A stretch of 64,000 bases of DNA from an uncultured Clostridium sp. (GCA_947575605.1 CANPNZ010000002.1:31020-95019), one strand, 5' to 3'. Positions 33,959-62,566 are shown, numbered from the stretch's first letter. A program made the numbers and translations. The notes: generated by a model from the sequence alone, not told the origin.

Positions 33959-34557
33959 TTATTCACAAGGTTTCCTATCATTCATATAAAATTTTTTCTC
34001 TGCTAATTTATCTTGAACGCCACGTAGTGCTTCTCCAAATCTTTGGAAATGGACTACTTCTCTTTCTCTTAAATATCTTAATGGATCTAAAACATCTGGA
34101 TTGTCACGGCAAAGATCAATTAATTTTTCATAGGTCGCCCTTGCTTTTTGCTCTGCTGCTAAGTCTTCTTGTAAGTTTGCAATTGGATCTCCTTTACAAG
34201 CAATATATGCTGCTGTGAATGGTACTCCTGCTGCTGATGCTGGATATACGTCTACTCCATGATCCGTATAATATGGTGCTAATCCTGCTTTTTCAATTTC
34301 TTCAATGCTTGCTCTGTCTGTTAATTGGTGTACTATGGTTCCTACCATTTCTAAATGGGCTAATTCTTCGGTTCCAATATCATTTAAAATAGCTTTTGCT
34401 TTTTGATCTGGCATACCAAATCTTTGAGAAAGATATCTTAAAGAAGCAGCAAGTTCTCCATCAGGTCCACCATATTGAGATATAATCACTTTAGCAAGTT
34501 TTGGATCTGGACATTTTATATTGATTGGATATTGTAATGTTTTATTATAAGTCCACA
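33959..34557 (-). CDS. cotJC: spore coat protein CotJC (manganese-catalase-like)
   Basis: MWTYNKTLQYPINIKCPDPKLAKVIISQYGGPDGELAASLRYLSQRF is near-identical in pattern to B. subtilis CotJC. RBS AAGGGGG. Confidence 0.85.
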
Positions 34558-34639
34558 TTAATAATTCCCCCTTTCCCATGGCCAGTTTTCGTTTTGTTTG
34601 GAGGAACTATTTGTTTATACAATTTTTATATCCATATTT

Positions 34640-34707
34640 ATCATTAAAGTGGATATTAAATAGCCTTCAAATGGATACCTTTAATATATCCACTGGGGGC
34701 TTTTTTT
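34640..34707 (+). terminator. hairpin plus T-run built from inverted TTAAAGTGGATAT motifs
   Basis: aagtggatattaaa...tttaatatatccact followed by GGGGGC T7. Confidence 0.5.
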
Positions 34708-34958
34708 AGTATCTTTAAAGTGGATATTTTGAGAGGCTTCTAATATGCTAAAAATAAGTCAAAACTCAAAAAAAGTTGTTTGGAGTTTAAAGGGTATGAT
34801 ACAGGAAAAGGGATTTCAAGAAAATTAAGTGTGTATATTGTTTTATGTTTTGATATGGATATATAGCTGATAAAAATTAATGTAAAAATTTGTTGAAGAG
34901 ACGAATTTTTTATGATAACATACTATCAAGATTTATTTAAGTAATTAGGAGATTTGTA

Positions 34959-35489
34959 ATGAAATTATATGTAATTAGACATGGTGAAACTAATATGGGT
35001 AAAAATGAAATTATAGCAACTGAAGATGAGCCATTAAATGAAACAGGTATCCAACAGGCTATAGCAGTTGGAAGAGATATTAAAAAGTTAAATATTAATA
35101 AAGTATTTTGTTCTCCAATACCAAGAGCAAAACATACATTAGAATTATTTGGATTAAATAAAAATATTCCTGTGATAATTGAAAATAGAATAAAAGAACG
35201 AGATATGGGAATATATGAAAAAGTTCCTTTTGAGCAACTTAAATGGGATGAATTTTGGAATTATAATTCAGATAGATTATATCCAGAATTAGAAACTATG
35301 AAAAGTGTATATGAAAGGATATCAGATTTTCTAAATGAATTAAAATCAAGTAATAGTAATGATAATATTTTATTAGTTACACATGGAGGAATATCAAGAG
35401 CGATTTATTGGTATTTCAATGGAATACCAGACAATGGGAATTCATCTAATATTAATGAAAATTGTAAAATCTATAATTATGAACTATAA
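34959..35489 (+). CDS. histidine phosphatase family protein (phosphoglycerate mutase-like)
   Basis: RHGE catalytic motif at N-terminus; HGG motif. Confidence 0.7.
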   Translation: MKLYVIRHGETNMGKNEIIATEDEPLNETGIQQAIAVGRDIKKLNINKVFCSPIPRAKHTLELFGLNKNIPVIIENRIKERDMGIYEKVPFEQLKWDEFWNYNSDRLYPELETMKSVYERISDFLNELKSSNSNDNILLVTHGGISRAIYWYFNGIPDNGNSSNINENCKIYNYEL

Positions 35490-35504
35490 AGAAAGGATTT
35501 AAAA

Positions 35505-36029
35505 ATGAAATTATATTTAGTAAGACATGGAGAAGTAAATCATAATTTATATGGATTGTATAACAGAGAAGATGAGGACTTAAATGAAACAGGAATACAA
35601 CAAGCAAAGAATTTAAAAGAAAAAATTAAGGCTATAAAATATGATTTTATTATCTGTTCTCCATTATCAAGAGCAAAACATACTGCTGATATTATTAATA
35701 TTGATAATAAAAATATAAAAATAGATGATAGACTTAAAGAACGAGATCCAGGTAGTTTAAGTGGACAACCCATCGAAGTAACAAATAGAGAAGAATATTG
35801 GAATTATTATACATCTATTCAATATGGTACAAGTGAAAATATTAAAGAATTTTTTAATCGTGTTTACAATTTTTTAGATGAGTTAAAAACAAAGGATTAT
35901 GAAAACGTTTTAATTGTAGCTCATAGTGGAGTATCGAAAGCATTTAATGGTTATTTTAATGGAATAGTTGATGGTAAATTCTTAAATAGAGGATTGAAAA
36001 ATTGTGAAATAAAAGAATATGAAATGTAA
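35505..36029 (+). CDS. histidine phosphatase family protein (tandem paralog)
   Basis: RHGE motif; paralog of the preceding gene. Confidence 0.7.
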   Translation: MKLYLVRHGEVNHNLYGLYNREDEDLNETGIQQAKNLKEKIKAIKYDFIICSPLSRAKHTADIINIDNKNIKIDDRLKERDPGSLSGQPIEVTNREEYWNYYTSIQYGTSENIKEFFNRVYNFLDELKTKDYENVLIVAHSGVSKAFNGYFNGIVDGKFLNRGLKNCEIKEYEM

Positions 36030-36480
36030 AACTAATATTAAAGTGGATATATTTTTCTTCTATAACCTTTGAAACATAAGCCTTTAAAAAATTTGCATGT
36101 ATATATTTTCAAAACAATTAAAATATTATATAATCACTTTAGTAACAATTAACATTCAAATTGCTACTACAAAACTATATAAAAAAATAAGTAAACACTT
36201 TTTGAACTAAAATGAATAAATATAAATTATCTTCGGACAATTTATATTTATTTTTTTCGTTCATAAACTTATGTAGAAGGTGATTCAATGCAAAAAAACA
36301 CATTACAACCTAAAGTAAAAAATATATATAATGAAAATGGCTTAACACTTACAGAATTAATACAAGAATGGTTAAATGAAAATTATTTTTTTTGGAATTT
36401 AAATAATGATAAAAATGAAATAAAATATAAAGGTATAAATAAATAGTTATCGTAAATTTAAACTCTGGAAAGGAGGATAA

Positions 36481-38031
36481 ATGCAAGAGTTAAACTATAA
36501 CTTTCCCCCTACTTATTTTAAAGTAGGAATTTACACAAGACTTTCAAGAGAAGATGAAAAAGACAAAGAATCTGAAAGTATTGATACTCAAAAAAAGTTA
36601 TTAACAAACTATATAAAAAGTCAAGGTTGGACTTTATTTAAAATATATGTAGATGATGGATTTACTGGTACAAATTTTAATAGACCAGATTTTAAAAATT
36701 TAATAAATGATATTGAACTTGGTAATGTAAATGTAGTCATTACAAAGGATTTATCAAGACTTGGCAGAGATTATATTGAAACAGGTTATTATTTAGAAAA
36801 ATACTTTCCATTAAAAAATGTAAGATATATTGCTTTAAATGATGGAATTGATACATTTGATAATAACAACACCAATAATGATATGACACCATTTAAATCT
36901 GTTTTTAATGATATGTATGCAAAAGATATCTCAAAAAAAGTTCGTTCCAGTTTGCTAACAAAAGCATCAAGTGGACGAAATATCAAATCTTTTTTACCTT
37001 ATGGCTATAAAAAAGATGAAAAGGACAAAAATATCATTTTAATAGATTATGAAGTTTCTCCTATTGTTCAAAAAATATTTGAAATGTATTATGCAGGAAA
37101 TAATAAAACTGAAATATGTAGATATCTAAATAAAAATAAAATACTAACACCACTTGCCTATAAAAGAAAAACTACAAACTATTATAATCCAAATAACAAA
37201 ACAAATTTATGGAGTACAACCATGATTTCTAAAATTCTTAGAGATAGAATTTATACAGGAGATTTAGTACAACATAAATATAGCAAATTGAATTACAAAA
37301 CTAAAAAAATTATTGATGTACCAAAACAGCAACATATTATTATTGAAAATAATCACAAACCAATCATTGATAAAAATATTTTTAATAGTGTTCAAATTAT
37401 GCTTGATAAAAAATCAAATGAATGGAATTATACCGCTTCTTCTGCTCATTTGTTACAAGGGCTAGTTCTATGCAAAAAGTGTAAATCAAAAATAACCTAT
37501 AATAAAAATCATGGAAAATATTTTAGATGTGTGTGTTCTTCTTATAAAAGAAATGGTAGTAAATTTTGCTCTAATATCCATTTAAGAGAAGATACTTTAA
37601 TTAGTAGTGTAATTACTAGTTTGAAAGAAAACATTTCTGATTTTCTAAAATACGATGAATTAGAATATATCTGTCCTAATACACAAATAGATAATAAAAA
37701 ATTAGATTATTTGAATTCTAAAATAACTGAAAAGGATGATTTGATCCAGTCTTTATATGAAGATAAAGTAAAAGGAATTATCACAGAAGATTTATTTATC
37801 AAACTTTCTAAACAATATGAAGTAGATAAAAAAACTTTACTAAATCTAGTTCAAAAAGAAAAAGAGATTAATAAGAATACAATAAAAAAAGAAGATTTAA
37901 TCTGTAATGTGAAAGAATTATTAGATTTTAATGAAAATAACCTAGATAGAAATTTGCTTTTAAAATTAATTGATAAAATAGAAATAGATGATGACAATAT
38001 TGAAATTTATTATAAATTTAAAGCCATTTAA
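36481..38031 (+). CDS. large serine recombinase (resolvase domain + recombinase domain + zinc ribbon)
   Basis: YTRLSREDE catalytic Ser region; LSRLGRD; Cys-rich zinc-ribbon CKKCKS...CVCSSY; C-terminal coiled coil. Confidence 0.9.
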   Translation: MQELNYNFPPTYFKVGIYTRLSREDEKDKESESIDTQKKLLTNYIKSQGWTLFKIYVDDGFTGTNFNRPDFKNLINDIELGNVNVVITKDLSRLGRDYIETGYYLEKYFPLKNVRYIALNDGIDTFDNNNTNNDMTPFKSVFNDMYAKDISKKVRSSLLTKASSGRNIKSFLPYGYKKDEKDKNIILIDYEVSPIVQKIFEMYYAGNNKTEICRYLNKNKILTPLAYKRKTTNYYNPNNKTNLWSTTMISKILRDRIYTGDLVQHKYSKLNYKTKKIIDVPKQQHIIIENNHKPIIDKNIFNSVQIMLDKKSNEWNYTASSAHLLQGLVLCKKCKSKITYNKNHGKYFRCVCSSYKRNGSKFCSNIHLREDTLISSVITSLKENISDFLKYDELEYICPNTQIDNKKLDYLNSKITEKDDLIQSLYEDKVKGIITEDLFIKLSKQYEVDKKTLLNLVQKEKEINKNTIKKEDLICNVKELLDFNENNLDRNLLLKLIDKIEIDDDNIEIYYKFKAI

Positions 38032-38134
38032 ACTTTTAAAACCAAATTCTAATAAATTCACAATAGAGATTGTAAATTCAATTTGAACTTGCTATAATAT
38101 ACATATAAATTACAAAGAAAGGAGCTGATTAACT

Positions 38135-38431
38135 ATGTCTGAAACACAAATACAAGCAATCAAAGATGTTATAAAAATGACACCACGACTTAATATAGAA
38201 TGTCTAAATTCTGTTAAAATTCTAATGGAAAAAGCTATTGATTCAGAATTATTAAGACTAGAACCTACTGTCATTTTAGAAAACATGGATATTACGGAAA
38301 AAGTAATGTATTTGGACTATTTAACAGAAAGCAAAGATACCAAAGAAAAAGAACAAAAAAATGCAGTATCTTTTGAAGAAATACTAAAAAGAGAGGGGTT
38401 GACTTACGATGATTTACAAGATAAAAATTAG
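38135..38431 (+). CDS. putative antitoxin (upstream partner of the RelE/ParE-like gene)
   Basis: Small acidic protein whose stop overlaps the start of the toxin-like ORF. Confidence 0.45.
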   Translation: MSETQIQAIKDVIKMTPRLNIECLNSVKILMEKAIDSELLRLEPTVILENMDITEKVMYLDYLTESKDTKEKEQKNAVSFEEILKREGLTYDDLQDKN

Positions 38432-38655
38432 ACCCAAAGCTCTCAAATTTATTGAAAAACAAGACAAAATTCAAAAACTACGAATTTACAAAGCAATTTA
38501 CAACCTGCCCAATGGCGATGTTAAGAAAATGGTAGGTTGTAAAAATGAATATCGACTTCGAGTTCGGTGATTATCGTATTATTTATGAATTAAATCAAGA
38601 TGAACTTATTATTTTAGTAACAAAAACTGACAACAGAGGACAAGCTTATAAGTAA
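38416..38655 (+). pseudogene. RelE/ParE-family toxin, frameshifted near 38565
   Basis: MIYKIKIRPKALKFIEK...NEYRLRV, then +1 frame GDYRIIYELNQDELIILVTKTDNRGQAYK, matching the RelE/ParE fold. Confidence 0.55.
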
Positions 38656-38710
38656 TGATTTTTAAATCTTTAAAATTAAACTCTAAATCAAATTTTTATT
38701 CAGAAAGAGT

Positions 38711-39079
38711 TTAAACTACTCCCAAACCAAACGAAACCCATGGCTCTTCCAACCATCTCCATTTATTACAAGGGTACTGAATGGTAAGAGGTCCATATAC
38801 TTTTTGGTATTTATCTTTTAAATCTTTTACATATTTGCAATACTTTCTATGCAAACAAAGTGCTTTTTCATCTTCTGGATGGGTATCTAAATATAATGCC
38901 AATTCTGTAATAGCAAAATCATAACATCTAATTTGTTCGATCATTTCTCTTCTTTCTTCACAATCAACTGTTCTTTCTACTTCACAAGTACAGTTATTAG
39001 ACATATTAGATACCATCATAGCATCATCCATATGGTTGTTACAACTGCAACCACAATTTCTGCTTTCTTCTACTGACAT
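38711..39079 (-). CDS. cotJB: spore coat protein CotJB with Cys-rich N-terminal extension
   Basis: CotJB signature LYLDTHPEDEKAL...YGPLT...EEPW. Confidence 0.8.
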   Translation of the reverse strand: MSVEESRNCGCSCNNHMDDAMMVSNMSNNCTCEVERTVDCEERREMIEQIRCYDFAITELALYLDTHPEDEKALCLHRKYCKYVKDLKDKYQKVYGPLTIQYPCNKWRWLEEPWVSFGLGVV

Positions 39080-48785: not shown

Positions 48786-49355
48786 TTATTTTGTTTTATC
48801 TAATCTATTGCATTCCTTTTTATTTTCAAGACATTTTTTAGGCGGTTCTTGGAAACTCAAATACCAACTAATTCCATTTCCATTTTTTTCAATTTCTTCA
48901 TTTCTTGTTTGTAATTTTGCAAAAGTTTTAGGTGGCGGAACAATAACAGGTTGCCCTGGCATCCAGTTCGCTGCCGTAGAACCTTTGCTACAATCTGCCA
49001 TTTGCAATGCTTGCACAGTTCTTATAATTTCTGGAATAAATCGTCCTACATTTAGTGGATAAATTAATATCGTTCTTACAATGCCTTTATCATCAATAAT
49101 GAATACATTTCTTACTGTTTCTGTATTACTTATATCATTGGCGATCATTCCATATTTTCTGGCAATTTGACCATTTCTGTCTGCAATAATAGGAAACGAT
49201 ATTTTTATTCCTGTTTTACAATAAATGTCATACATCCAAGCTAAATGCGAACTGTTACTGTCTACACTTAGCCCCAATAATTCTGTGTTTAATTCCTGAA
49301 AATATTTTTGTGCTCTAGTAAAAGCTATCATTTCTGTTGTACAAACAGGGGTGAA
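48786..49355 (-). pseudogene. 1-Cys peroxiredoxin (Prx6-like), C-terminal fragment (from the CTTE of the active site onward)
   Basis: Begins ...FTPVCTTEMIAF; the upstream 46 codons are missing here and are found at 60400-60545. Confidence 0.8.
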
Positions 49356-49378
49356 GTACACATCTTTGGGTGTCATTT

Positions 49379-50959
49379 TTAAATCATTTTTTCAATATCT
49401 GTTTTTAATTCAAATTTTATCATTTTATCTCTATTTATATAAATTTTATCTATGAGCATTTGCAAAATCATTCTATTAGGTACTTCTGATTTTATAATTT
49501 CATCAAAATATTCAATTGAATTTCTTAACTTATTTCCTTTTTCTTCTAAATGCTTTTTTTCATCTTCTTGTAATAATGCTTTTAAATAAGAAATATTTTT
49601 TACTTTTTCCTTTTCAAGTTCTTTATATGTATTTTCAATAATCTTTCTTGCTATTTCATTATTAGCAGATGCCAGCTCTTTAATTTTTTGATTAACTAAC
49701 ATTTTATATTCTTCATTTAAGATGTTTATATTGTTTCGTAACTTAATTTTATTATCTTCTTTCTTATTTTGTTTTATTTCAATCTTAATATTTTGTATTT
49801 CTTCTAAATATTGCTTTTTAGTAAATTTTAAAAATTCTTTTAAATGTATTAAAATATCTTTTTCTTTAACCTCGTGGCAGTGACAAGCTTTTGTACTAAA
49901 TTGTCTATATCTTGAACAATCATATCCCTTTTCTTTTACTTTTCTCCTAATTACTATACCTGACATTCCTGAACCACAATCTTCACACTGACACATTCCT
50001 GAAAAATAATAGTCTCTTTTTGTATTTGTTCCTGAAGTATTTTGTTCATTCTTTTTCTTTCTTATTTCTTGTGCTAACTCGAATATTTCCTTTGAAATAA
50101 TTGGCTCGTGATGATTTTCAAATACAAAATGTTCTTCTTTTGGTAGCTTTACAGCTTTTCCTCTAATATTTACTGTTCGCTTTTTATGAGTAATTAAAGT
50201 ACCTGTATAAATCTCATTTTTTAATATATTACTTACCATATCTTTTGTCCAATCTTCTTGAACTTTGTGTCTATAAACTCTACCTTTTTCTAAATGTTTC
50301 ATTCTATAATATTCAGATGGTGTTGGATAATTATATTTTGTATTTAATATTTCGCTAATCTTTTGAAATCCATATCCATTTTCAACATATAATTTAAATA
50401 TAACTTCAATAACTGGTTTTAGTTCGTCTATGATATAGAGCATAGGTATATCGTCTTTAAAAACTTTTTCATAGCCATAGTAATTTCCCATAATTAGTCT
50501 TGCGTTTTTTTGCTTAGAATACATATGATCTCTTGTTTTTCTTGAGCAATCTTTTACATATCTTTCATTAAACCAAGTAGTTATTCCAATCGTATCATCT
50601 CTGTCATTTAAAACATCATAAGTTCCGCCCATTTCTGAAACTAGAATTAGATTTTTTTGCATATTTTTAAATTCATCTATAAGCACTAAAACTCTTCCAT
50701 TATTTCTGCCAATTCTTGATAAATCTTTTGCTATAACTACATCAATTTCTCCTCCTTTTACTTTCTCCATCATTTTTGAAAATTCAGGTCTATTAAAGGT
50801 ATATCCCGAAACATTGTCATCTATGTAGAAGTCTTCATCTTTGATAATCCAATTACAAGCCACTGCATAATCTTTAATAATTCTTTTTTGTTCCTCTATG
50901 CTTGAATAATTTTCTTTATCTTCATCTCTAGACAATCTACAATATCCTACAACTGTCAT
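49379..50959 (-). CDS. large serine recombinase
   Basis: GYCRLSRDEDK catalytic Ser; DLSRIGRN; zinc ribbon CQCEDCGS...CSRYRQ; long coiled-coil C-terminus; AAAGGAGG RBS. Confidence 0.9.
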   Translation of the reverse strand: MTVVGYCRLSRDEDKENYSSIEEQKRIIKDYAVACNWIIKDEDFYIDDNVSGYTFNRPEFSKMMEKVKGGEIDVVIAKDLSRIGRNNGRVLVLIDEFKNMQKNLILVSEMGGTYDVLNDRDDTIGITTWFNERYVKDCSRKTRDHMYSKQKNARLIMGNYYGYEKVFKDDIPMLYIIDELKPVIEVIFKLYVENGYGFQKISEILNTKYNYPTPSEYYRMKHLEKGRVYRHKVQEDWTKDMVSNILKNEIYTGTLITHKKRTVNIRGKAVKLPKEEHFVFENHHEPIISKEIFELAQEIRKKKNEQNTSGTNTKRDYYFSGMCQCEDCGSGMSGIVIRRKVKEKGYDCSRYRQFSTKACHCHEVKEKDILIHLKEFLKFTKKQYLEEIQNIKIEIKQNKKEDNKIKLRNNINILNEEYKMLVNQKIKELASANNEIARKIIENTYKELEKEKVKNISYLKALLQEDEKKHLEEKGNKLRNSIEYFDEIIKSEVPNRMILQMLIDKIYINRDKMIKFELKTDIEKMI

Positions 50960-50996
50960 TTTTCCTCCTTTTGCCTGATATTGCTCTTGGTCTATA

Positions 50997-51230
50997 TTAG
51001 CATACATTGTCCGATAACTCCACTTGTTTCGCAATTATTTTTTTGAGAATTTCGGGATAATTCTTTGTTCCTGTTACAAATATTCCAATTTTATACTTTT
51101 GTTCTTCATATTTTTCAATTGTTTCTTTAGTTTCTTGTTGTTCTAATTCTTCTTTAGTTAGATAAATTTGCATATATTTGGTATTAGAGATTTCATTAGA
51201 AGTAATTTGCATATTATTTAACTCCTTCAT
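50997..51230 (-). CDS. small conserved protein upstream of the recombinase (paralog at 56528-56761; possible directionality/regulatory factor)
   Basis: 77 aa, about 75 % identical between the two elements, co-oriented and immediately upstream of each recombinase. Confidence 0.45.
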   Translation of the reverse strand: MKELNNMQITSNEISNTKYMQIYLTKEELEQQETKETIEKYEEQKYKIGIFVTGTKNYPEILKKIIAKQVELSDNVC

Positions 51231-52065
51231 AATATTTCTCCCTAAATATTATGCAAAAAGAAACATATAAATATCTCCTTTTGTCTTAAAAAATTACTTG
51301 ATGAAATCTAATACACAACTTTCTTGATTACTATCAATAAATCACCTCCTGTTTTTAACATTAATAAATTTCTTTCTAATAATAGGAGTACCATTATTAA
51401 GCATAAATGTTGTATTTTATAAAAGAATTATTTCTATATAATAAAAATTTCTATATAATAAAAACTCCTTTATTAATATAAATCCAATATTTATGAATAA
51501 TGTTGTAAAATTATATATTTTTTATTTCTAATAAATAAGAACACTTTTTATTTTTAGAATGGGGAATTTTCTGAATTAAATATCTATCAAAACAAAAGAA
51601 ATGATAATCATGTATAAAAACACAATTATCATTTCTTTTTAGCTATAACATTGTATATGTGCCAATGTTTCATTTTTCCTAATCCAGTTTTTCCATCTTT
51701 TTCTAATTCATTAAAGTGTATTATTTCAAAAGCTAACACTTGCTCTTTTGTTAGAAATACCATTTGTTCTTTAATTTTTGTCCATGAATCATTTAATAAA
51801 AAAAGTTTCCAACAAAGTATCCGACCTTTTAAAATACTATCATTTATCTTATTCCAAAATTCATTAAAATAATCTTTACTACAAAAGGGAATACTAAAAT
51901 TAGAACTAATAGATTATTTTTTTCTAATTTAATATCTTCAAAGTTTTGAAGATTAAATCTAATAATATCAATTCCTTTCAATTTCTTAACAAGTATTATA
52001 GCATACAATTTTATAAAAAGTAATAGGAGAATGAAAATTTTATTTTTCCACTCTCCTATCGTGCC

Positions 52066-53100
52066 TTAAAACTTTTTCCAGCACTGAGGATCTTTTGAAT
52101 AAAAGTTTCCAGTTAAACATTTGGCTACCGAAGGACATCCTCTGCAAAAGTTCTTGATTTCACATTTAGAACAATGTTCAAATTTATCATACTGACGGTA
52201 TTTGTCCATTTCTTCACCATTGAAGATGTCATAGAAAGATTGCTCTGGAACTTTTCCTACAGGTGTTTCACTTCTTCTACAAGCATAAACTGTTCCATCT
52301 GCCAAAGTTGTTATGTGGGTAATTCCACAATGACATCCATCAAGAATCAGGTCATTTGGATTGTCAATCTCGTTAGGATTAAATAACCCTTTTTCATACA
52401 GATACAATTTCCAAAGATGGTCTTTCAAGGCAAACCTTGTGTCACATTCCTGATTTTGCATGTACTTTTCCCACATCTTATCCAGAAAATCTCTGTATTC
52501 TTCAGGTTCAACCATCAAATCGAAATCTTCAGGGCTAGGGCAATATCTTGCAAAACTAAAATTGCTAACTTTGTGTTTTACTACGATGTCCACTAATTCA
52601 GGAATTTCTGCAATATTTGTCTTTGAAACTGTTGTCATGATAGCAGTTTTGATTTTGCTACCCTCAAAATACTTTAAAGCATCCAAAGTAGCATCAAAAG
52701 AACCAGGCTTACGAATAAAATCGTGAGTTTCTCTCAAACCGTCCAATGACATTTGAAAGTTTATACAACCTAAATCTTCCAACTGCTTCACAACATCATA
52801 GTCCAAGTGGAACGGATTACCTAAAAGTCCAAAATGAACTTTATGTTCTTTGAGTATCTCCAGAAAATCCCATATTTTTTCGTAAAGTAAAGGATCTCCT
52901 CCTGTAATTACGAGGAAAGGGTCTCTGTTCAGCCTGTCACAACTTTGAATAAAATCTTTCAAAATTGCTTTCAATGTGCCTAAATCAAGTTCAAGACCAC
53001 ATTTTTTGTCTTTACCTTCATAGATGTAGCAATGCTTACACCGCTGATCACATCTATCAGTGATATGCCATTGCATACTGAATTTTGTTCTTTCTGCCAT
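52066..53100 (-). CDS. radical SAM/SPASM-domain peptide-modifying enzyme
   Basis: CDQRCKHCY (CxxxCxxC) cluster; C-terminal Cys-rich SPASM region (CHCG...CRRSE...CSKCEIKNFCRGCP). The ORF track starts upstream at 53181. Confidence 0.85.
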   Translation of the reverse strand: MAERTKFSMQWHITDRCDQRCKHCYIYEGKDKKCGLELDLGTLKAILKDFIQSCDRLNRDPFLVITGGDPLLYEKIWDFLEILKEHKVHFGLLGNPFHLDYDVVKQLEDLGCINFQMSLDGLRETHDFIRKPGSFDATLDALKYFEGSKIKTAIMTTVSKTNIAEIPELVDIVVKHKVSNFSFARYCPSPEDFDLMVEPEEYRDFLDKMWEKYMQNQECDTRFALKDHLWKLYLYEKGLFNPNEIDNPNDLILDGCHCGITHITTLADGTVYACRRSETPVGKVPEQSFYDIFNGEEMDKYRQYDKFEHCSKCEIKNFCRGCPSVAKCLTGNFYSKDPQCWKKF

Positions 53101-53204
53101 TATAAATCCTCCTTTTAGGGCAAGAGACACCTCTAAAAGAGATGCCTCTGCTTTGTTGAAACTAATGTGTGCTGTCGACAATACACATTATTCGTTCATC
53201 TGTA

Positions 53205-53423
53205 TTAACTACAAGATATCCTGCAAGATGTGCAAGCTCCACAGGAACAACTACTGCATTCTGTGTGACCGCTTGAGCAGCTACAAGAACAAACTGCAGC
53301 AACTACTTTGACTCCAGCTCCAACTAATTTAGCCTTTGCAGACTTCATAAAGTTCTGAGCAGAGTTTTTCCCAATGTAGTTTACACTGGGATTCCAGTAA
53401 TTTGTCCGTGCCATTCTGTTCAT
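53205..53423 (-). CDS. Cys-rich RiPP precursor peptide candidate (72 aa; 9 Cys in the last 31 residues)
   Basis: Leader MNRMARTNYWNPSVNYIGKNSAQNFMKSAKAKLVGAGVKVVAAV, then core CSCSCSSGHTECSSCSCGACTSCRISCS. RBS AAAGGAGAA. Immediately upstream of the rSAM/SPASM gene. Confidence 0.6.
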   Translation of the reverse strand: MNRMARTNYWNPSVNYIGKNSAQNFMKSAKAKLVGAGVKVVAAVCSCSCSSGHTECSSCSCGACTSCRISCS

Positions 53424-53508
53424 AGTGCATTCTCCTTTCCATAAAATTCCAACGGGTTGCTTAGAGCAATATTTACTGCCCTAAATAATACATAAAGATG
53501 TATTATAC

Positions 53509-53733
53509 TTACATAATATCATGTTTGGAATATTTTGTCAATAGTTTGTATTCTTTTACTTGACCATATGATAGATTACTCATTCCTATATTCAATTCTT
53601 TATCTATTCCATTTCTAATAATATCTGCTTTATATCTTCCTTGAGCTTTTGCAATATTCTTTATCATTTTCTTTTTATATCTTGGTATTCTTATTACCAT
53701 TGTTACTAATTCTTCATCTTTATTCTTTTTCAA
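53509..53733 (-). CDS. ribbon-helix-helix (CopG/Arc-like) DNA-binding protein
   Basis: VIRIPRYKKKMIKNIAKAQGRYKADIIRNGIDKEL fits the beta-alpha-alpha RHH pattern. Confidence 0.4.
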   Translation of the reverse strand: MKKNKDEELVTMVIRIPRYKKKMIKNIAKAQGRYKADIIRNGIDKELNIGMSNLSYGQVKEYKLLTKYSKHDIM

Positions 53734-53942
53734 ATTTTACCTTCATTCTTTTTTACTTTTTCATATCAAAATTACCTTAAAGTAATTTTGCAGGATCAGG
53801 GCGACGTCTCGAACCCCCATAACTGCCTAAAAGCGTAGCTTTTATCAGTATACACTTTCATTATAGCGATGTCACATAGACATCTCGTTTTTTGGTTAGA
53901 AAAAACCAATATAAATCCACAAATTTATATTGGTTTTCACTT

Positions 53943-54248
53943 TTATTTCAATTCTTCTTTTAATTTTATTCCATCTTTTAGTCCTGCAAAATAATATTTC
54001 TTATGAAAATAATAACTTTCAAAATCAATTGTTTCTACATAATCTTTTATCAACTTTTCAATGCTATCTTTTAGCCAATTAAGATTATATGGAATTTTTT
54101 CCAATTCTTTATTTAAACAATCAGATTTTTTAATTTTATTCGCTTTATCCTGACACATAAACTTCTTGTCTTCATCTGTAATAAAAGCCACATCTTCTTC
54201 TCTTGCTTCAAATATTGTTTCTAGCATATTGATTTTTTCTTTCTCCAT
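53943..54248 (-). CDS. hypothetical protein
   Basis: ORF only. Confidence 0.3.
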   Translation of the reverse strand: MEKEKINMLETIFEAREEDVAFITDEDKKFMCQDKANKIKKSDCLNKELEKIPYNLNWLKDSIEKLIKDYVETIDFESYYFHKKYYFAGLKDGIKLKEELK

Positions 54249-54311
54249 TTAACATCACCTCCTATTGGTGTGTGATGTTAACTCTTCTTGAAATTAATGT
54301 CAAGATAATTC

Positions 54312-54734
54312 TTAAAAGTTATTCGCATATAAACTTGTCCAATCAGAATCACTATAATCTCTGTCACTTTTATATTTATTTTTATGATTACTTTTTATCT
54401 CTTTAACATTTGTATTAATAGGTTTAGTATCAAATTGTTTATATGTATCAACATTTTTGTATATAGGTGTAATCTTCCTTAGAGCTATTTCTTTCGAATT
54501 TTCTTTATAAATCATTTCTACTTTTATATATCCTTTTTTCTTAAGTGAATTAATAATTCTTGAAGATTGTATTTTTGTAATACTTAATAATTCACTTATA
54601 TATAAATTTGACATAATACATTCTTTTTCTTTGCTTAAATATAAAATCATAGAATAAACTATTTTTTCTTTATCATTTAATTTTATATCCATTAATATTT
54701 CATAAGGTATCCATACTCCTTTAAATTCTTTCAA
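54312..54734 (-). CDS. winged-HTH DNA-binding protein (putative element replication/maintenance protein; paralog at 59812-60252)
   Basis: ISELLSITKIQSSRIINSLKKKGYI HTH; about 85 % identical paralog in E2. Confidence 0.5.
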   Translation of the reverse strand: MKEFKGVWIPYEILMDIKLNDKEKIVYSMILYLSKEKECIMSNLYISELLSITKIQSSRIINSLKKKGYIKVEMIYKENSKEIALRKITPIYKNVDTYKQFDTKPINTNVKEIKSNHKNKYKSDRDYSDSDWTSLYANNF

Positions 54735-54904
54735 TACTTTATTTTCTTTCCAATCAATCGCTCGACGATCGATTTCTAAGCCATTAAATTTAAAATTCGA
54801 TTAACTTATCAATATCGAAAATTATAAGCAATATCAGGCATTTTATTTATTCATCCAAAGATTTAGACTTTACGGGTGTAAAGTCTTACAATGTGGGGAG
54901 TTTT

Positions 54905-56484
54905 TTATATTAGTTTTTCAACATCTACTTTTAAATCAAATTTTACAGTTTTATCACTATAAATCCATATTTTATCTATTATATTTTCTAAAACATATCT
55001 GCTTGGTATTTCTTTTGCAATAATTTCATCGAAATACTCTATTGTATTTTTTAGCTTTTTTATTTTTTCTTTTGAAATTTCTTGTTCTTCTTTGTTTAGT
55101 ATTTCTTGTAATTTTTCTATTTTGTTTGTTTTATCCAGTTCTAATTCTTTATATGTATTTTCTATCATTTGTTTTTGATATTCATTTGTACTTGATGCTA
55201 AATCTTTTATTTTTTGGTTTAATAAAACTTTATATTCTGCCTTTAAAGTTTCAAGTTCATATTTAATCTTTTCTTTATTAGTTTGCATATTAGTAGTTTT
55301 TGTCTCAATTTCTATTTTAGTTATTTCATCAATATATTTTTGTCTTGTAAATTTTAGAAACTCCTTTAAATGAATAATCATATCAGTTTCTTTTATTTCA
55401 TGACATTTACATCTTGTTTTCCCATAAGTTCTATACTGGGAACATTCATATCCTTTTTGCTTTTGTTTTCGATTCATGGTTATACCGACTTACTCCAAAT
55501 CCACAATCACCACATTTAACTAATCCAGAAAAAGCATAGTTTCTTTTTCTTGTCCCGACAAGTACTTTTTGAATTTGCTTTTCTTTTTCTAATTTCTTGT
55601 GCTAATTCAAATGTTTCTTTTGAAATGATTGATTCATGATGATTTTCAAATACAAAATGTTCTTCTTCTGGAAGTTTAATTGCTCTGCCTCGTATAGAAA
55701 CAGTTTTCTTTTTATGAGTTCTTAAGTTTCCTGTGTATACATCATTATTTAAAATATTACTTATCATATAGGTAGACCATAATTTTTGTACAGGATGTTT
55801 GTATATTCTTCCTCTTTCTAAATGCTTTTGTTGATAATATACAGAAGGAGTAGGGTAGTCATATTTGCTATTCAAAATATCACAAATTTTCTTTCTACCT
55901 AAACCATCTTCAATATATAGTTTATATATTAATTCTATAACAGGTCGTATTTCTTCATCTACATATAACTTTGTAACATCTTCTGTATCTTTTACATAAC
56001 CATAATAATTTCCCATTATTAATCTTCCCGATTTTTGTTTAGAATACATATGATCTCTTGTCTTTCTTGAACAGTCTTTTACATATCTTTCGTTAAACCA
56101 TGTTGTAATTCCAATTGTATCATCTCTGTCATTTAAAACATCATAAGTTCCTCCCATTTCTGAAACTAGAATTAAATTTTTTTGCATATTTTTGAATTCA
56201 TCAATAAGTACTAAAACTTTTCCATTGTTTCTTCCAATTCTTGATAAATCTTTTGCTATTACAACATCAATTTTTCCTCCTTTTACTTTTTCAATCATTT
56301 TTGAAAATTCAGGTCTATTAAAGGTATATCCCGAAACATTGTCATCTATGTAGAAGTCTTTGTCTTCGATAATCCAATTACGAGAAATAGCATAATCTTT
56401 TATAATTCTTTTTTGCTCTTCAATACTTGCATAATTTTCTTTATCTTCATCTCTAGACAGTCTACAATATCCTACAATGGTCAT
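54905..56484 (-). pseudogene. large serine recombinase paralog, disrupted by at least 2 frameshifts in the zinc-ribbon region (55480-55570)
   Basis: N-terminal 340 aa about 80 % identical to the 49379-50959 product. Middle segment RNYAFSGLVKCGDCGFG is readable only in a third frame. The C-terminal 190 aa continue in a third ORF. Confidence 0.8.
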
Positions 56485-56527
56485 TTTTTCCTCCTCACTT
56501 GACCTGATATTGCCTATGTGCTGTATG

Positions 56528-56761
56528 TTAGCATACATTGTCTGTTAATTCCACCTGTTTCACAATAATTCTTTCAAGAATTTCGGGATAATTCTCTTTT
56601 CCTGATATAAAAATAGCTATATAATACTTTTCTTTTTTATATTTTTCAATTTTTGCTTTTGTTTCTTGTTTTTTCAGTTCTTCTTCCGTTAAATAAATTT
56701 GCATATATTTGGTATTAGAGATTTCATTAGAAGTAATTTGCATTCTATTTAACTCCTTCAT
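56528..56761 (-). CDS. small conserved protein upstream of recombinase (paralog of 50997-51230)
   Basis: Paralogy and position. Confidence 0.45.
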   Translation of the reverse strand: MKELNRMQITSNEISNTKYMQIYLTEEELKKQETKAKIEKYKKEKYYIAIFISGKENYPEILERIIVKQVELTDNVC

Positions 56762-57054
56762 AATATTTCTCTCTAAATATTATGCAAAAAGAAATACCAA
56801 TTATTTCTTTTTGTCTAAAAATTACTTTAGTAAAATTCTAATACTCTAATTTTTATTATTTTTCAAAAGCATCCCTCCTCTATAATATAAGAACACAAAA
56901 ATTTTATTAAATGGGTATTTTTAATAAAATCTTTCATATATATAAACACATTTTTTTCTATTAAATGTTGCATTTTTTGAAAAATTTATATTTTTTAATA
57001 TTTTATTCTTTTTATAAATTTAGTAATAAATGAAGATTTAACATATAAGAACAA

Positions 57055-57150
57055 AAGGGGCATGATTAATTTTTTTGACCTTTTAGATTCTTTACATGTC
57101 CCGTTTTTGTTCGCCCGCGAAAATTGCTAAGCAATTTTCTGTGGAATGCT
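57055..57150. repeat. Family D hairpin repeat, copy 2
   Basis: Matches the reverse complement of 15680-15780. Confidence 0.6.
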
Positions 57151-57235
57151 TTATATTCTAGGAAGTTCGGAGAATTTTCCTAGAATATAAAAAAGTAACT
57201 ATTGATATAGCTACTTATATAATCTTATTATTCAA

Positions 57236-57559
57236 TTATTCGTCTTTTAAATATTTTTCCCAATCCATAAAAGCATGACCGATTCTTAATACTAATACTT
57301 TAGATTTTTCTTCATCAACTATATAAAATATTATATAATTTCTTACATTGATTTTTCTAATATTTTTATGACCTGTCAAATCTTCATTTAAAATAAGCAT
57401 ACTTCCTGCTACATTTTCTAAATCTTTCAACTTTTGTTTAAATAAGAGTTTGTATTTGTCTGCTATAATATCTCCTGCTAGATTATATCGAAGATATGAA
57501 ATAATATTTTCTAAATCTTGTTCGGCAGTTTCTGAAATTTCCACTATATATTTTTTCAT
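57236..57559 (-). CDS. RelE/ParE-family type II toxin
   Basis: ParE/RelE-like length and motifs (YIIFYIVDEEKSKVLVLRIGH). Confidence 0.7.
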   Translation of the reverse strand: MKKYIVEISETAEQDLENIISYLRYNLAGDIIADKYKLLFKQKLKDLENVAGSMLILNEDLTGHKNIRKINVRNYIIFYIVDEEKSKVLVLRIGHAFMDWEKYLKDE

Positions 57560-57577
57560 AACATTTGCTCCAGTCTT

Positions 57578-57835
57578 TTACATATTATCTATTTTAGAAA
57601 AAACTTCATCTAAAGAATAGACTTTATTTTCTTTTATATCATCTAGTCCTTTTTGTAACTTTTCTTTTAAGTCTTTTTTACTTTTTATTGTTATACTCTC
57701 TGGAGCTTCTGTATCTATATATGATATTTTTAAATATTCAATAAAATTAATGACTTGATTCGTAAGTTCTTCTGGTAATGTTTCAATTTCATTATATAAT
57801 TTTTGTTTTTCTATAGACATATTGATTACCTCCAT
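57578..57835 (-). CDS. antitoxin partner of the ParE/RelE-like toxin
   Basis: Small acidic protein immediately upstream, 18-nt gap. Confidence 0.55.
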   Translation of the reverse strand: MEVINMSIEKQKLYNEIETLPEELTNQVINFIEYLKISYIDTEAPESITIKSKKDLKEKLQKGLDDIKENKVYSLDEVFSKIDNM

Positions 57836-58049
57836 AATAAATTTATACTATTATTATAGCATTTTTCCTTTCAAAAATCTATGAATTTGAGAAAATATTT
57901 TATATCTTAAAAAATAAAATATTTTTTGTTTTATCCTTTATAAAAAAAGTAACTATTTTAAATAAAACCATCTAAACAATAACTTGAGTATCTAATTGCT
58001 TTCAAGTCTTTTTATGTATCTTATTAAAAATTTATTATATTATGAAAAA

Positions 58050-58397
58050 TTACATTTGCAAATTTAATTCAAATCTTTCTATAAATCCTATCCATTCTCC
58101 TTTTTCATTCTTGACCCCTTGCATATAAACTCTTTGATTCCTAGCAGTTACGCATACAAACATTTCTTTTCCATTGCTTTTAATTCCCTCATAACCTTTT
58201 TTTATTCTTTCAATAGATTTTTCACTACTATGGCATTTAAATAGACTTTTTCCTATTAAATTTTTATATCCTCTTTCTTCATAATAATGGTATTGTGCAT
58301 TTTTATTCATAAATCTAATAATATAGTCATTATCTACAAAAACAATAGGATATGGATAACTATTCAAAATTCCTTTTAACATTTCTAATTCTTCCAT
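58050..58397 (-). CDS. PAS-domain protein
   Basis: PAS-like core (ILNSYPYPIVFVDNDYIIRFMNKNA...). Confidence 0.45.
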   Translation of the reverse strand: MEELEMLKGILNSYPYPIVFVDNDYIIRFMNKNAQYHYYEERGYKNLIGKSLFKCHSSEKSIERIKKGYEGIKSNGKEMFVCVTARNQRVYMQGVKNEKGEWIGFIERFELNLQM

Positions 58398-58529
58398 AAA
58401 TATTTCCTCCCTTAATCATTTATAATTATTATATTATTTTTTCATAGAAAACAAGCGAAAACAATATATTTTAAAAAAAGTTGTAATTTAATTACCCATA
58501 ATATAATAATGTTTTTTTCATCTAAAAAG

Positions 58530-59402
58530 TTAATTTAATTTGAATTGACTAGCCAATTTATCGATTGTAATGCCACCTCTATTTTTCCAATCAATTTCAA
58601 TACTGTTAAATCTTTTATCTTGGAAATTATTAAGTAGCTCTATCTCTTTATTCTCTAATGTAAAATCTAAAGATTGTAAATTACTATCTATATTTTGTAT
58701 TGTATTAGTTTTTATGATTGTATTTAAACCTTTCTCTTTTATCATCCAATTCAATAAAATTTGATTTTGTGTCCTATTATATTTATTTGCTAATTCTACT
58801 AAAAAAGGATAATTTCTTTTAGCTATATTATTTCTTCTTAATGCTTGATAACATACAAATTTAATATCATTAGATTTACAAAAATCTATTAAACCTATAT
58901 TTTCGTAATATTTACATTCTAAATTATACACACCTTCAAAACTATATAGTTTAAAATATTTTTGGATTTCTTTCAATTCTTCAAAAGAAGTATTGCTTGC
59001 AGATATGTATCTAATTTTTCCTTTTTCTACTAACTTGCTTATTTCTTCATATGTTTCTAGTAATGGTATCTTTAACGCATAAGATATATGAACTTGCAAA
59101 GCATCTACATAATCAATATTCATTCTCTTTAAATATTCATCTAATTGTTTTTCTACATCTTCTTTTTTCTCTATGTAAGGTTCTAAATGACAAGTAAGAA
59201 ATATATTGTCTTTACTCACTTGTTTAAAAAAGTCACCTAGAAAGTCTACAACATTACAATTATCGTATAAAAGACTTGTACTCATAAAATTTTGCCCTTT
59301 ATTAACAGAATATAATAATGATTGTAAAGTCTTATCTTTGTTTTCTAAATCAAGTTTATATGTACCTATTCCAATTGGATTAATTTTATTTAATTCTATC
59401 AT
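58530..59402 (-). CDS. aldo/keto reductase family oxidoreductase
   Basis: AKR motifs IGIGTY, DALQVH, GKIRYISASN, ILLNWMIKEKG. Confidence 0.75.
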   Translation of the reverse strand: MIELNKINPIGIGTYKLDLENKDKTLQSLLYSVNKGQNFMSTSLLYDNCNVVDFLGDFFKQVSKDNIFLTCHLEPYIEKKEDVEKQLDEYLKRMNIDYVDALQVHISYALKIPLLETYEEISKLVEKGKIRYISASNTSFEELKEIQKYFKLYSFEGVYNLECKYYENIGLIDFCKSNDIKFVCYQALRRNNIAKRNYPFLVELANKYNRTQNQILLNWMIKEKGLNTIIKTNTIQNIDSNLQSLDFTLENKEIELLNNFQDKRFNSIEIDWKNRGGITIDKLASQFKLN

Positions 59403-59811
59403 AATTTCTCCTCAATTTTACTCTTAGTATTTTCTCTTAAAACCATTATACCATATGTTTCTTTATAAAACTACTATTTGATTATAATTTTTTCTGCCTT
59501 ACCAATAATCAAAATTGCTAAAAAGCAATACAAAATGCATACTGAGACTGTAAAAAAATCAAAGATTTTAACAGCCTCAGCATTTTGCAGGATCAGGGCG
59601 ACGTCTCGAACCCACACAACTACCTAAAAACGTGGTTTTTAGCGGTATACGCTTTCATTATGGCGATGTCAAATAGATGTCTCGTTTTTTGTCAGAAAAA
59701 AGCCAATATAAATTGATAAATCTATATTGGTCTTCACTTTTATTTCAATTCTTCTAATTTTATTCCAACTTTTAGTCTTTCAAAATAATATTTTTGATGT
59801 CAAGATAATTC

Positions 59812-60252
59812 TTAAAAATTATTCGCATATAAACTTGTCCAATCAAAATTACTATAATCTCTGTCACTTTTATATCTGTAACCATTTTTATTATATATCT
59901 TATTATTATTTATTATTTCTTTAACATTTGTGTTAATAGGGTTAGTATCAATTTGTTTATGGGTATTAACATTTTTGTATATAGGTGTAATCTTTCTTAA
60001 GGCTATTTCTTTTGAATTTTCTTTATAAGTCATTTCTACTTTTATATATCCCTTTTTCTTAAGTGAATTAATAATTCTTGAAGATTGTATTTTTGTAATA
60101 TTTAATAATTCGCTTATATATGAATTTGACATGATACATTCTTTTTCTTTGCTCAGATATAAAATCATTGAATAAACAATTTTTTCTTTATCATTTAATT
60201 TTGTATTTATTAATACTTCATAAGGTATCCATACTCCTTTAAATTCTTTCAA
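59812..60252 (-). CDS. winged-HTH DNA-binding protein (paralog of 54312-54734)
   Basis: Paralogy. Confidence 0.5.
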   Translation of the reverse strand: MKEFKGVWIPYEVLINTKLNDKEKIVYSMILYLSKEKECIMSNSYISELLNITKIQSSRIINSLKKKGYIKVEMTYKENSKEIALRKITPIYKNVNTHKQIDTNPINTNVKEIINNNKIYNKNGYRYKSDRDYSNFDWTSLYANNF

Positions 60253-60399
60253 TATTTATTTTTCTTCCCAATCAATCGCTCGACAATCGATTTTGTGCCA
60301 TTAAATTATAAAATTTGATTAACTTATCAATATCGAAAGTTATAGATAATATCAGGCATTTTCATATTTTTTTCAACGTTCCCCAAATTGTAAGAATAG

Positions 60400-60545
60400 A
60401 CGGGGGTAAAATCGCCTGGATGTGAAAATAATACTAACCATTTTCCTTGATAATCTTCTAGTTTAATTTCTCCAAATGTTGTGTTTGCTTCAAACTCTGG
60501 AGCTTTTTGTCCGATTTTAACATTTCCATTCATCATTAATTCATA
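60400..60545 (-). pseudogene. 1-Cys peroxiredoxin, N-terminal fragment ([15 protein letters not shown]...[11 protein letters not shown])
   Basis: Ends exactly at the FTPV of the peroxidatic-Cys motif and then reads through into element DNA. Confidence 0.8.
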
Positions 60546-60624
60546 ATCCATAAAAAACAAACTCCTCTCATTTTTTATATCATATGAGAAAAGTTTGTTT
60601 TGGTTACATGATTTATTAGATTTG

Positions 60625-61858: not shown

Positions 61859-62566
61859 TTCTATTTTTTTCTAACTATGTTGTCTGCTTGTTTTTCCGTC
61901 AAATACCCATACTCTATCATTTTTTTCATCACTTGTTTTTGCCTTTGTTTTGCTAATTCTGGATTTACTGTCGGTGCATAGACAGAAGGTGCATTAGGAA
62001 TTCCTGCTAATAAAATACATTCATAATCTGTCATTTCTTTTAACTCCTTATTAAAATAACCGCTTACATGCCTCTTTTATCGTTTGGTAACCATCTCCAA
62101 AATAACTGCTATTTAGATATAACTCTAGTATTTTATCTTTGTTGTAGTTTTTTTCTATTTCAAAAGCCATAAAGACTTCTGCTGCTTTTCTCGTTATCTT
62201 TTTTTCTTGTGTAAAATAAATATTTTTAGCTAATTGCTGTGTAATTGTACTACCCCCTTCTATAAATTTCATGGCCTTGATATCATGAATAAAAGCTCTT
62301 CCTATGGCAATCATATCAATCCCTTTATGTTGATAAAATCTATGATCTTCTACTGATATAACTGCATTTATATACATTTCTGGTACTTCTTGCATTTTGG
62401 TATAATTATTTTTTCTTTCTATGCTTTCTACTTTTTGACTAAGAGGTATTTCCTTCACAGCTTCTTGATAATTCTCATATCCATTTCCTATAATTAATAA
62501 ACCTATACTTATAAAAATTAATACTACTGCAAAAATCACCTTTTTAAATATTCTCATTTTTATCAC
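61859..62566 (-). pseudogene. monofunctional peptidoglycan transglycosylase (GT51), frameshift in an A4 run at 62041-62044
   Basis: GT51 motifs EDHRFYQHKG, GGSTITQQLAKN. Removing one nucleotide joins ...EACKRLF to NKELKEMTDYECILLAGIPNAPSVYAP... Confidence 0.65.

Follow-up and report, generated by a model that had tools for sequence, protein, structure and literature searches.

A small number of cultured Bacilli and Clostridia are known to carry intervening elements within sporulation genes. In the skin element of sigK (SpoIVCA, or CD1231 and CD1234 in Clostridioides difficile) and in SPbeta of spsM (SprA and SprB), a serine recombinase works with a directionality factor, and a gene used only by the mother cell is precisely reconstituted. 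Here we liken to these a locus in the DNA of an uncultured Clostridium sp. (GCA_947575605.1 CANPNZ010000002.1:31020-95019; the whole stretch of 64,000 nucleotides is called the window), in which prx, the gene of a Prx6-type peroxiredoxin, is interrupted by two tandem islands, E1 and E2, each built around a large serine recombinase (LSR) gene. That a serine-recombinase element may interrupt a sporulation gene is already known; what appears undescribed is the target (prx, severed within its catalytic motif), the small modular build of the islands, their abundance in uncultured gut Clostridia and the existence of two arm specificities. On balance we favor, with modest confidence, a reading in which E1 and E2 are members of a site-specific LSR family whose insertion point is the CC dinucleotide of the proline codon of the FTPVC motif, the insertion being reversible in principle, tolerated, and probably undone in the mother cell wherever the recombinase is intact. 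Excision of the islands and its tie to sporulation are predictions.

The described systems resemble the prx islands to different degrees. Skin and SPbeta are prophages or remnants of 14–134 kb, and sigK is essential for sporulation, whereas the prx islands hold no phage genes, have a target that is probably dispensable, and commonly show recombinase decay. The gin element in gerE of Bacillus cereus ATCC10987 (GirC/GirX) spans 28.6 kb and has three recombinases, and both its excision and its sporulation timing were shown experimentally (PMC5595907). Like the prx islands, gin is not a phage, joins an LSR to a very small accessory protein, and has imperfect inverted-repeat attachment (att) sites around a short core. 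It splits a mother-cell gene of the sigma-K period, and its excision rebuilds the open reading frame (ORF), whereas for prx the rebuilt ORF is a computed one. The prx islands further differ in their size of 4–10 kb, their one recombinase, their target, their cargo and their tandem arrays, and they are known from sequence alone. The prophage-like yin element in yabG of Clostridium botulinum is unique to one strain, and its circular form has been detected (PMC10747680); it lies in a sigma-K-controlled gene related to the coat, as prx probably is, and shares with the prx islands a clostridial host and a putative small directionality factor. The prx islands, by contrast, occur in many species, and none was seen as a circle. 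The fdxN element of Anabaena, with its recombinase XisF, offers a parallel of LSR-driven developmental excision in the terminally differentiated heterocyst, albeit from another phylum and with another target and other accessory proteins (XisH and XisI).

The split of prx is confirmed, far beyond chance. The gene lies on the minus strand and is interrupted at the FTPVC proline codon by 11,055 bp (Table 1), such that its 3′ remainder, beginning FTPVCTTEMIAF, stands 11 kb from the 5′ part. Joined in silico at the shared core, the two parts form a 236-aa ORF with the Pfam domains AhpC-TSA (E 5e-37) and 1-cysPrx_C, which scores 276 bits against the NCBIfam peroxiredoxin PRK13189 (cut-off 211). A genome scan found prx uninterrupted at 80 of 80 loci of related uncultured gut Clostridia. 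The closest of these, on contig L001, is colinear with both window flanks at 90–92% nucleotide identity, lacks exactly the DNA between 60400 and 49355, and codes for a protein 97% identical to the joined one. Against this allele the split gene shows a dN/dS of 0.057 with 0 stop codons and 0 frameshifts, and its fragments are thus without decay. A first-pass annotation of the window, made from the sequence by a model, had proposed a peroxiredoxin gene split by ~11 kb inside its peroxidatic motif, and suggested joining the fragments and searching for an intact allele; all of this holds, the FTPV codons being present at both junctions, except that the 5′ fragment, given there as 46 codons from 60545, starts at 60551 and has 49–50 codons. 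It remains to be asked whether 11 kb of chimeric DNA were simply misjoined at the prx locus, as this is a metagenome-type assembly with other frameshifted genes (sod, a transglycosylase). We regard the probability of such an artifact as negligible. The attR junction of the window was found again in four independent sequencing runs (L158–L161), which argues against misassembly and, together with the colinear L001 and the low dN/dS, establishes the split as real; an island in cotJB, described below, was assembled again in SRR22049995, one of four runs that contain this strain (the others being SRR22049915, SRR31538560 and SRR36199842); the architecture with both junctions recurs on many long contigs from other samples; and the att sites show the exact anatomy of recombinase sites.

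The product is a Prx6-type enzyme by its AhpC-TSA fold, its PVCTTE peroxidatic motif and its 1-cysPrx_C domain, and the best PDB matches of the joined protein are archaeal Prx6-class enzymes. Its C-terminal cysteines, CLENKKEC, resemble the extra cysteines of these archaeal relatives. The “1-Cys” of the first-pass annotation is accordingly best read as a family label, borne out by PRK13189, and not as a mechanism.

A 2-bp crossover within imperfect inverted repeats is the signature of LSRs. At prx, strand exchange is confined to the CC that forms the first two bases of the FTPVC proline codon: the base preceding it is C at attL and A at the middle site of the window, and the base following it in L084 is C at attL (from the element) and A at attR (from the host), with differences likewise in L085 and L088. 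The type-2 P′ arm at attL, TCTTACAATTTGGGG, is an inverted repeat of the type-2 P arm at the middle site, attH, at 17 of 24 positions, while the type-1 arms, left of the attR CC and right of the attH CC, are inverted repeats at 17 of 23. Because each arm pair is matched in this way, the insert comprises two elements, and each has an attP of its own, whose inverted-repeat half-sites flank a 2-bp crossover common to attB, as in serine integrases. The short common core and the hybrid att-like site reported earlier thus take the form of a CC shared by attL, attH and attR, and of P(E2)-CC-P′(E1). The array reads, in order, B-CC-P2′, E2, P2-CC-P1′, E1, P1-CC-B′, and hence one island entered the hybrid att site left by the other. 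The junctions favor neither order of the two insertions, as P2/P1′ and P1/P2′ arrays both occur; the decay of E2 suggests that it is the older. Recombination of attL with attR at the CC rebuilds the intact prx ORF in silico, and the predicted junctions are CATCCAGGCGATTTTACCCCTGTTTGTACAACAGAAATG for attB, CCAAAGATGTGTACTTCACCCCCGTAAAGTCTAAATCTTTGG for attP1, CCCCACATTGTAAGACTTTACACCCGTCTATTCTTACAATTTGGGG for attP2, and ...GACTTTACACCTGTTTGTACAAC for the attR of E2 alone.

The E1 recombinase is an LSR by its domains (Pfam PF00239, PF07508 and PF13408); the intact gene adjoins attR, and the E1 ends bear matching inverted-repeat arms. Its named relatives are distant: in the PDB, TnpX matches best, but over the catalytic domain only (E 7e-13); among NCBIfam models, XisF ranks first yet stays below threshold (99 vs. 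375 bits), as do the Ccr models that are also among the best; and phage and plasmid LSRs reach at most 35% identity. The E2 recombinase, compared with intact type-2 genes (L111, L114–116 and L120), carries two single-base insertions in the zinc-ribbon region, at window positions 55400–55560. The first insertion alone is found in L133, the second alone in L129 and L137, and both in the window, L131 and L132. Recurring as they do in independent contigs, the insertions are real mutations and not read errors, and their non-nested pattern across contigs of different host species points to recombination between elements or to the spread of non-autonomous copies. The two recombinases are 76% identical over residues 1–319, but only 52% in the C-terminal part, which recognizes the outer arm motifs, and their differing C-terminal halves match their differing arms. 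Given this low C-terminal identity, the E1 enzyme may be unable to act on the E2 ends and remove E2. With E2's own recombinase frameshifted twice, it is doubtful that this strain can fully restore prx.

Directly upstream of the recombinase and in the same orientation lies a 71-aa ORF, an obvious candidate for the directionality factor. Nearly every family contig that covers the region has a copy ahead of the recombinase. The ORF belongs to a protein family of 753 members, all unnamed save for one evidently spurious label. An AF2 (AlphaFold2) model predicts a beta-beta-alpha-beta-alpha fold (pLDDT 78.6) with no PDB match at E ≤ 0.001, and the sequence has no Pfam, PHROG or NCBIfam family. The leader of this ORF (51230–51300 and 56762–56830, minus strand, and the same region in ~35 family loci) contains two hairpins that are conserved and show compensatory changes. 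Of these, the first, AGAGATA...TATCTCT, is followed by a T-run, and the second, AUAAUAUUU-loop-AAAUAUUAU, stands directly before the ribosome-binding site and has G-U variants that suggest action as RNA. Between them is a conserved CATAAYAT box with ATA 16–18 nt upstream. The leader could serve as promoter/operator or as attenuator of the recombination module.

The array of the window is no singular case but belongs to a very common family in which tandem arrays are frequent. Databases hold more than 120 relatives of the E1 recombinase at 77–100% identity, nearly all unnamed. In a junction census of 77 metagenome or assembly contigs that carry a family recombinase, 38 P-CC-B′ (attR-type) and 13–17 B-CC-P′ (attL-type) junctions were found, all in prx; other host genes contributed none. 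Compared with the window's prx, the alleles of the hosts show 65–100% identity, so many species are involved, and the prx fragments keep an open frame in nearly all of ~38 carriers. Complete single elements measure 4.25 to 10.4 kb, and their variable cargo includes a glycosyltransferase, a histidine phosphatase, an AAA ATPase, KilA-N and Abi. Two LSR contigs of ~5.5 kb, L081 and L083, were considered as excised circles and rejected, for they are linear pieces that end in the prx attR. Tandem junctions occur in seven other contigs (P2/P1′ in L115, L116 and L137; P1/P2′ in L094–096; P1/P1′ in L145), and since the elements have one target in common, the tandem arrangement is ordinary accretion. 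Tandem accretion at a common target is also known from tRNA-gene islands and from SCCmec-type cassettes (CcrA/B/C, orfX), which resemble the prx islands as small LSR-moved cargo that accretes via hybrid att sites; SCC, however, enters the 3′ end of rlmH without inactivating it and its Ccr enzymes have no directionality factor, whereas the prx islands destroy active-site codons. The earlier statement that tandem arrangement and target correspond to no known intervening element accordingly stands for the target, not for the arrangement. Our literature searches returned nothing that links an LSR or an attB with peroxiredoxin, and a survey of gene-disrupting integrative elements does not mention one (PMC7192596).

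Two other origins were considered for the islands and rejected. A phage origin is contradicted by the lack of any family relative in IMG/VR, by the distance of phage and plasmid LSRs (≤35% identity), and by the absence of structural genes. Transposons of the Tn4451/Tn5397 type, which need no directionality factor, carry a mobilization gene and target loosely at a GA dinucleotide, are moved by TnpX or TndX; the prx islands have no Mob gene, one specific target and a crossover at CC instead of GA.

The probable link to sporulation draws on the prx promoter, which matches the strict sigma-K motif AC-N16/17-CATANNNTA perfectly; the 64-kb window, both strands counted, has no more than 7 such matches. 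Among the 80 orthologous loci, 42 have the strict motif 48–62 nt upstream of the prx start codon, where 0.11 would be expected from its background rate in the same loci; the spacer sequence varies among orthologs, and near-matches occur in most of the other loci. Interrupted prx alleles, too, keep the motif upstream. In C. difficile, it is the −35 AC that sets sigma-K promoters apart from sigma-E promoters, and cotE, the gene of a peroxiredoxin-chitinase of the coat, has a mapped sigma-K promoter (PMC3789822), which supports the earlier view of peroxiredoxin as a clostridial coat component. CotE, with its 1-Cys-type peroxiredoxin domain, its sigma-K promoter and its spore-coat location, is the model for the role of prx; the window Prx has no chitinase domain and would presumably share the coat location. 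The window also codes for sigH, cotJA, cotJB, cotJC and a Coat_F protein, and the whole is consistent with a spore-forming host in which prx is a late mother-cell gene. As for the coat-type neighbors named in the first-pass annotation, the Coat_F and cotJ genes were found, but the DUF305 protein scores as a CopM-type metallochaperone. We know of no coat protein of that type.

One might equally ask whether excision belongs to vegetative growth, as a switch of the active-lysogeny type in which oxidative or other stress triggers excision and restores prx in part of the population. Reversible disruption by integrative elements has precedents in comK, mutL and others (PMC7192596), and the target is an antioxidant enzyme. 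Such a switch is nonetheless highly improbable, for the prx promoter is sigma-K-like, not sigma-A-like, in most orthologs, no stress-responsive regulator is recognized in the conserved module, and the element, which apart from a short winged helix-turn-helix (wHTH) protein shows no machinery for replication or transfer, would be lost if it were excised in the germ line.

Returning to reversible insertion with excision in the mother cell, the course of events begins with the island attP, its inverted-repeat arms set around CC, recombining with the CC of the prx proline codon. The integrated island presents, in order, a left-end wHTH gene, variable cargo, the 71-aa ORF and the LSR. Recombinase and 71-aa ORF, the latter as directionality factor, could together release the island as a circle. 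The island would be tolerated since its target is needed only in the terminal mother cell, and where its recombinase is intact it is probably excised there, which would allow prx expression for the spore coat. Of the two islands in this strain, E1 is probably still able to leave, but the E2 recombinase is dead, and prx would stay broken unless the E1 enzyme pairs the attL of E2 with the attR of E1.

Two further insertions bear on this scheme. A third LSR island of the window splits cotJB (Table 1); it also carries two histidine phosphatases and small ORFs, is flanked by the inverted-repeat arms CTCCAAACAAAACGAAAAC and GTTTCGTTTGGTTTGGGAG, and its cotJB junction was assembled independently in SRR22049995 (L162). 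In addition, a second, unrelated LSR family splits prx farther downstream, at the conserved SHLAW motif (L086, 6990–14250; L132, ~1927), with a core of AATGCATCACAT.T.GCA repeated at both ends. The SHLAW-site enzyme is 34–38% identical to the prx type 1 and 2 enzymes and 38–58% to the cotJB enzyme, and the protein cluster commonly contains Prx fragments of 147–149 aa that stem from it. Late mother-cell coat genes are thus where insertions by unrelated recombinases gather, a pattern known for intervening elements, and from the conserved sigma-K-type promoter of prx together with the cotJB island the family would most likely behave like the skin/gin class.

Several findings weigh against regular excision in the mother cell. 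Outside tandem arrays, no P1-CC-P1′ or P2-CC-P2′ junction of a circular attP was seen, nor was a same-strain attB, and the exact repaired Prx protein is absent from a collection of 15 billion sequences. The search for sigE/sigK promoters upstream of the recombinase genes, as the first-pass annotation had proposed, found no strict motif for either sigma factor ahead of the 71-aa ORF or of the recombinase; what stands before the module is only the conserved ATA-N16-18-CATAAYAT element and the two hairpins, and a sigma-70 scan gave no enrichment (84 found vs. 85.7 expected). Roughly every second ortholog has a prx promoter that deviates from the strict sigma-K motif, and what speaks for the 71-aa ORF as directionality factor is its position and its co-conservation. 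About one fifth of the family recombinases (~13 of 60) are broken, frameshifted or truncated, which points to weak host selection for, or dependence on, excision. Islands with a broken recombinase stand alone beside an otherwise intact prx fragment in L129 and L131, and L135 and L136 have a decayed prx beside a decayed recombinase. The resemblance to a skin-like element with mother-cell-only excision, drawn at the outset, extends to LSR elements in prx and to a sigma-K-type prx promoter; of excision itself no direct evidence was found.

Some of these findings would suit plain insertional inactivation, in which selfish cargo islands use conserved prx codons as a landing pad, a dispensable Prx is lost, and excision serves transfer with no link to sporulation. 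Serine-integrase elements often integrate within genes, and the broken recombinases (those of E2, L129 and L131 included), the jointly decayed genes of L135 and L136, and the recombination module with no detected sporulation promoter all fit. Likewise, the cargo is accessory in nature (a toxin–antitoxin pair, a peptide cassette, Abi, a glycosyltransferase), and in E1 two terminator-like hairpins isolate the recombination module from cargo transcription, shielding it from upstream. Against this alternative stand the conservation of the target's sigma-K-type promoter across species, the unrelated LSR families at prx SHLAW and in cotJB, whose clustering in late mother-cell genes is the signature of intervening elements, and the open prx fragments of nearly all carriers, with the low dN/dS of the window. 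Plain inactivation is a serious contender, which we nevertheless hold to be somewhat improbable. A wider proposal can be offered only tentatively, and we think it rather unlikely to hold in full: that abundant, undescribed miniature LSR cargo islands (4–10 kb) of human-gut Clostridia act as mother-cell-only developmental switches of coat antioxidant genes (prx at two motifs, and cotJB), such that the island stays in the germ line and the enzyme nevertheless reaches the coat, with tandem arrays and decay leading to heritable strain differences in spore-coat redox enzymes.

Should reversible insertion with mother-cell excision prove true, the intervening elements would gain a further target, a peroxiredoxin gene interrupted within its catalytic motif, and the phenomenon would be common in uncultured gut spore-formers by way of tiny non-phage islands instead of prophage remnants. 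It would also offer a concrete way to ask if spore-coat antioxidants differ among gut strains through insertion and excision of elements. For serine-integrase tools, the family is a source of attB/attP pairs, dozens of them occurring naturally, in which the crossover is defined as CC and the arms have two specificities, and the compact recombinase with its 71-aa partner is of practical interest for their development.

Table 1. Features of the split prx locus and of the cotJB island, in window coordinates (RDF, recombination directionality factor; RHH, ribbon-helix-helix).
Feature	Position	Strand	Details
sigma-K-type prx promoter	60578..60604	-	ACCAAAACAAACTTTTCTCATATGATA, between DUF305 and prx; perfect AC-N16/17-CATANNNTA match
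prx 5′ fragment	60403..60551	-	ATG 60551 to CC 60404-60403; MDYELMM... (translation); 92% nt identity to L001
attL, B-CC-P′ (type 2)	60374..60436	-	CC 60404-60403; ...GATTTTACC-CC-CGTCTATTCTTACAATTTGGGG (junction sequence)
Element E2, type 2	54877..60402	-	5,528 bp CC to CC; bounds from att symmetry; single same-arm element in L133
E2 wHTH protein	59812..60252	-	Pfam HTH_36, resembles replication-initiator N-terminus; 84% aa identity to E1 copy
E2 aldo-keto reductase (cargo)	58530..59402	-	Pfam Aldo_ket_red, E 9e-34
E2 PAS-domain protein (cargo)	58050..58397	-	Pfam PAS_10, E 7e-6
E2 ParE toxin and putative antitoxin (cargo)	57236..57835	-	toxin 57236-57559, ParE_toxin E 3.5e-13; antitoxin 57578-57835, weak DUF2281
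E2 71-aa ORF, candidate RDF	56528..56743	-	75% identical to E1 copy
E2 LSR pseudogene	54905..56484	-	two +1 frameshifts in zinc-ribbon region; Pfam on two ORF pieces
Hybrid attH, P (type 2)-CC-P′ (type 1)	54846..54908	-	CC 54876-54875; CCCCACATTGTAAGACTTTACA-CC-CGTAAAGTCTAAATCTTTGGATG; P2/P1′ also in L115, L116, L137
Element E1, type 1	49350..54874	-	5,527 bp CC to CC
E1 wHTH protein	54312..54734	-	Pfam HTH_36; PHROG replication-initiation N-terminal region, E 9e-11
E1 small DNA-binding protein	53509..53733	-	weak Arc/RHH-like PHROG matches, E 1.7e-5 to 9e-3
E1 Cys-rich 72-aa precursor (cargo)	53205-53423	-	part of ACGX-system cassette 52066..53423
E1 radical SAM/SPASM maturase, ACGX system (cargo)	52066-53181	-	Pfam; NCBIfam TIGR04340, 460 bits vs. 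cut-off 400
Terminator-like 20-bp hairpin	51594..51639	-	divides E1 cargo from recombination module; second hairpin 52022-52060
E1 71-aa ORF, candidate RDF	50997..51212	-	ends 37 nt before recombinase ATG
E1 LSR, intact, 526 aa	49379..50959	-	Resolvase + Recombinase + Zn_ribbon_recom; PHROG integrase E 9e-85
attR, P (type 1)-CC-B′	49319..49381	-	CC 49349-49348; CACCCAAAGATGTGTACTTCACC-CC-TGTTTGTACAAC; identical in L158–L161
prx 3′ fragment	48786..49349	-	CC 49349-49348 to stop 48786; PVCTTEMIAF...; dN/dS 0.043 vs. L001
Third LSR island	34582-38737		4.16 kb; splits cotJB; junctions ~38738 and 34582
cotJB	38711-39079		cut six codons before stop; intact relative L015 reads ...EEPW | PWERGNY
cotJB-island recombinase	36481-38031	+	30–38% identical to prx-type LSR
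cotJC	33959-34579		island parts cotJC from cotJA-cotJB

Pfam, PHROG and NCBIfam matches bear out E1 and E2 as two related modules with the genes first assigned to them, every one of which is oriented as prx. Their duplicated ends, put at ~1 kb at first, in fact amount to ~1.97 kb at 77% identity on the right (71-aa ORF and recombinase), and to ~0.57 kb at 88.6% plus 0.23 kb at 86% on the left, wHTH side; the middle parts are unrelated to each other. The cargo of E1 consists of an ACGX-type peptide cassette and two small DNA-binding or unknown proteins, the cassette being of the ribosomally synthesized and post-translationally modified peptide (RiPP) type and carried by a recombinase island. 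Pfam and PHROGs gave no phage structural, lysis or relaxase/conjugation gene in E1 or E2, and nothing convincing as iterons or an origin was found in their non-coding parts.

The wHTH gene is the first gene past attL in ~10 of the 16 members with a visible attL (both window copies, L084–L092 and others). It lies ~110–150 nt downstream of attL and is co-oriented with prx, with no terminator predicted between; the prx sigma-K promoter would therefore read into the wHTH gene when the island is integrated, a possible coupling of element expression to the timing of the host gene.

Elsewhere in the window, one tRNA is the only member of a known RNA family. The coat proteins of C. difficile include SodA; here, the Fe/Mn superoxide dismutase gene at 20364–20943 (minus strand) is frameshifted into ORFs of 130 and 67 aa; a split by a mobile element was considered for it and rejected in favor of a simple frameshift. 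The transglycosylase gene at 61861–62566 (minus strand) is apparently broken, by a frameshift or a stop codon, into ORFs of 171 and 57 aa.

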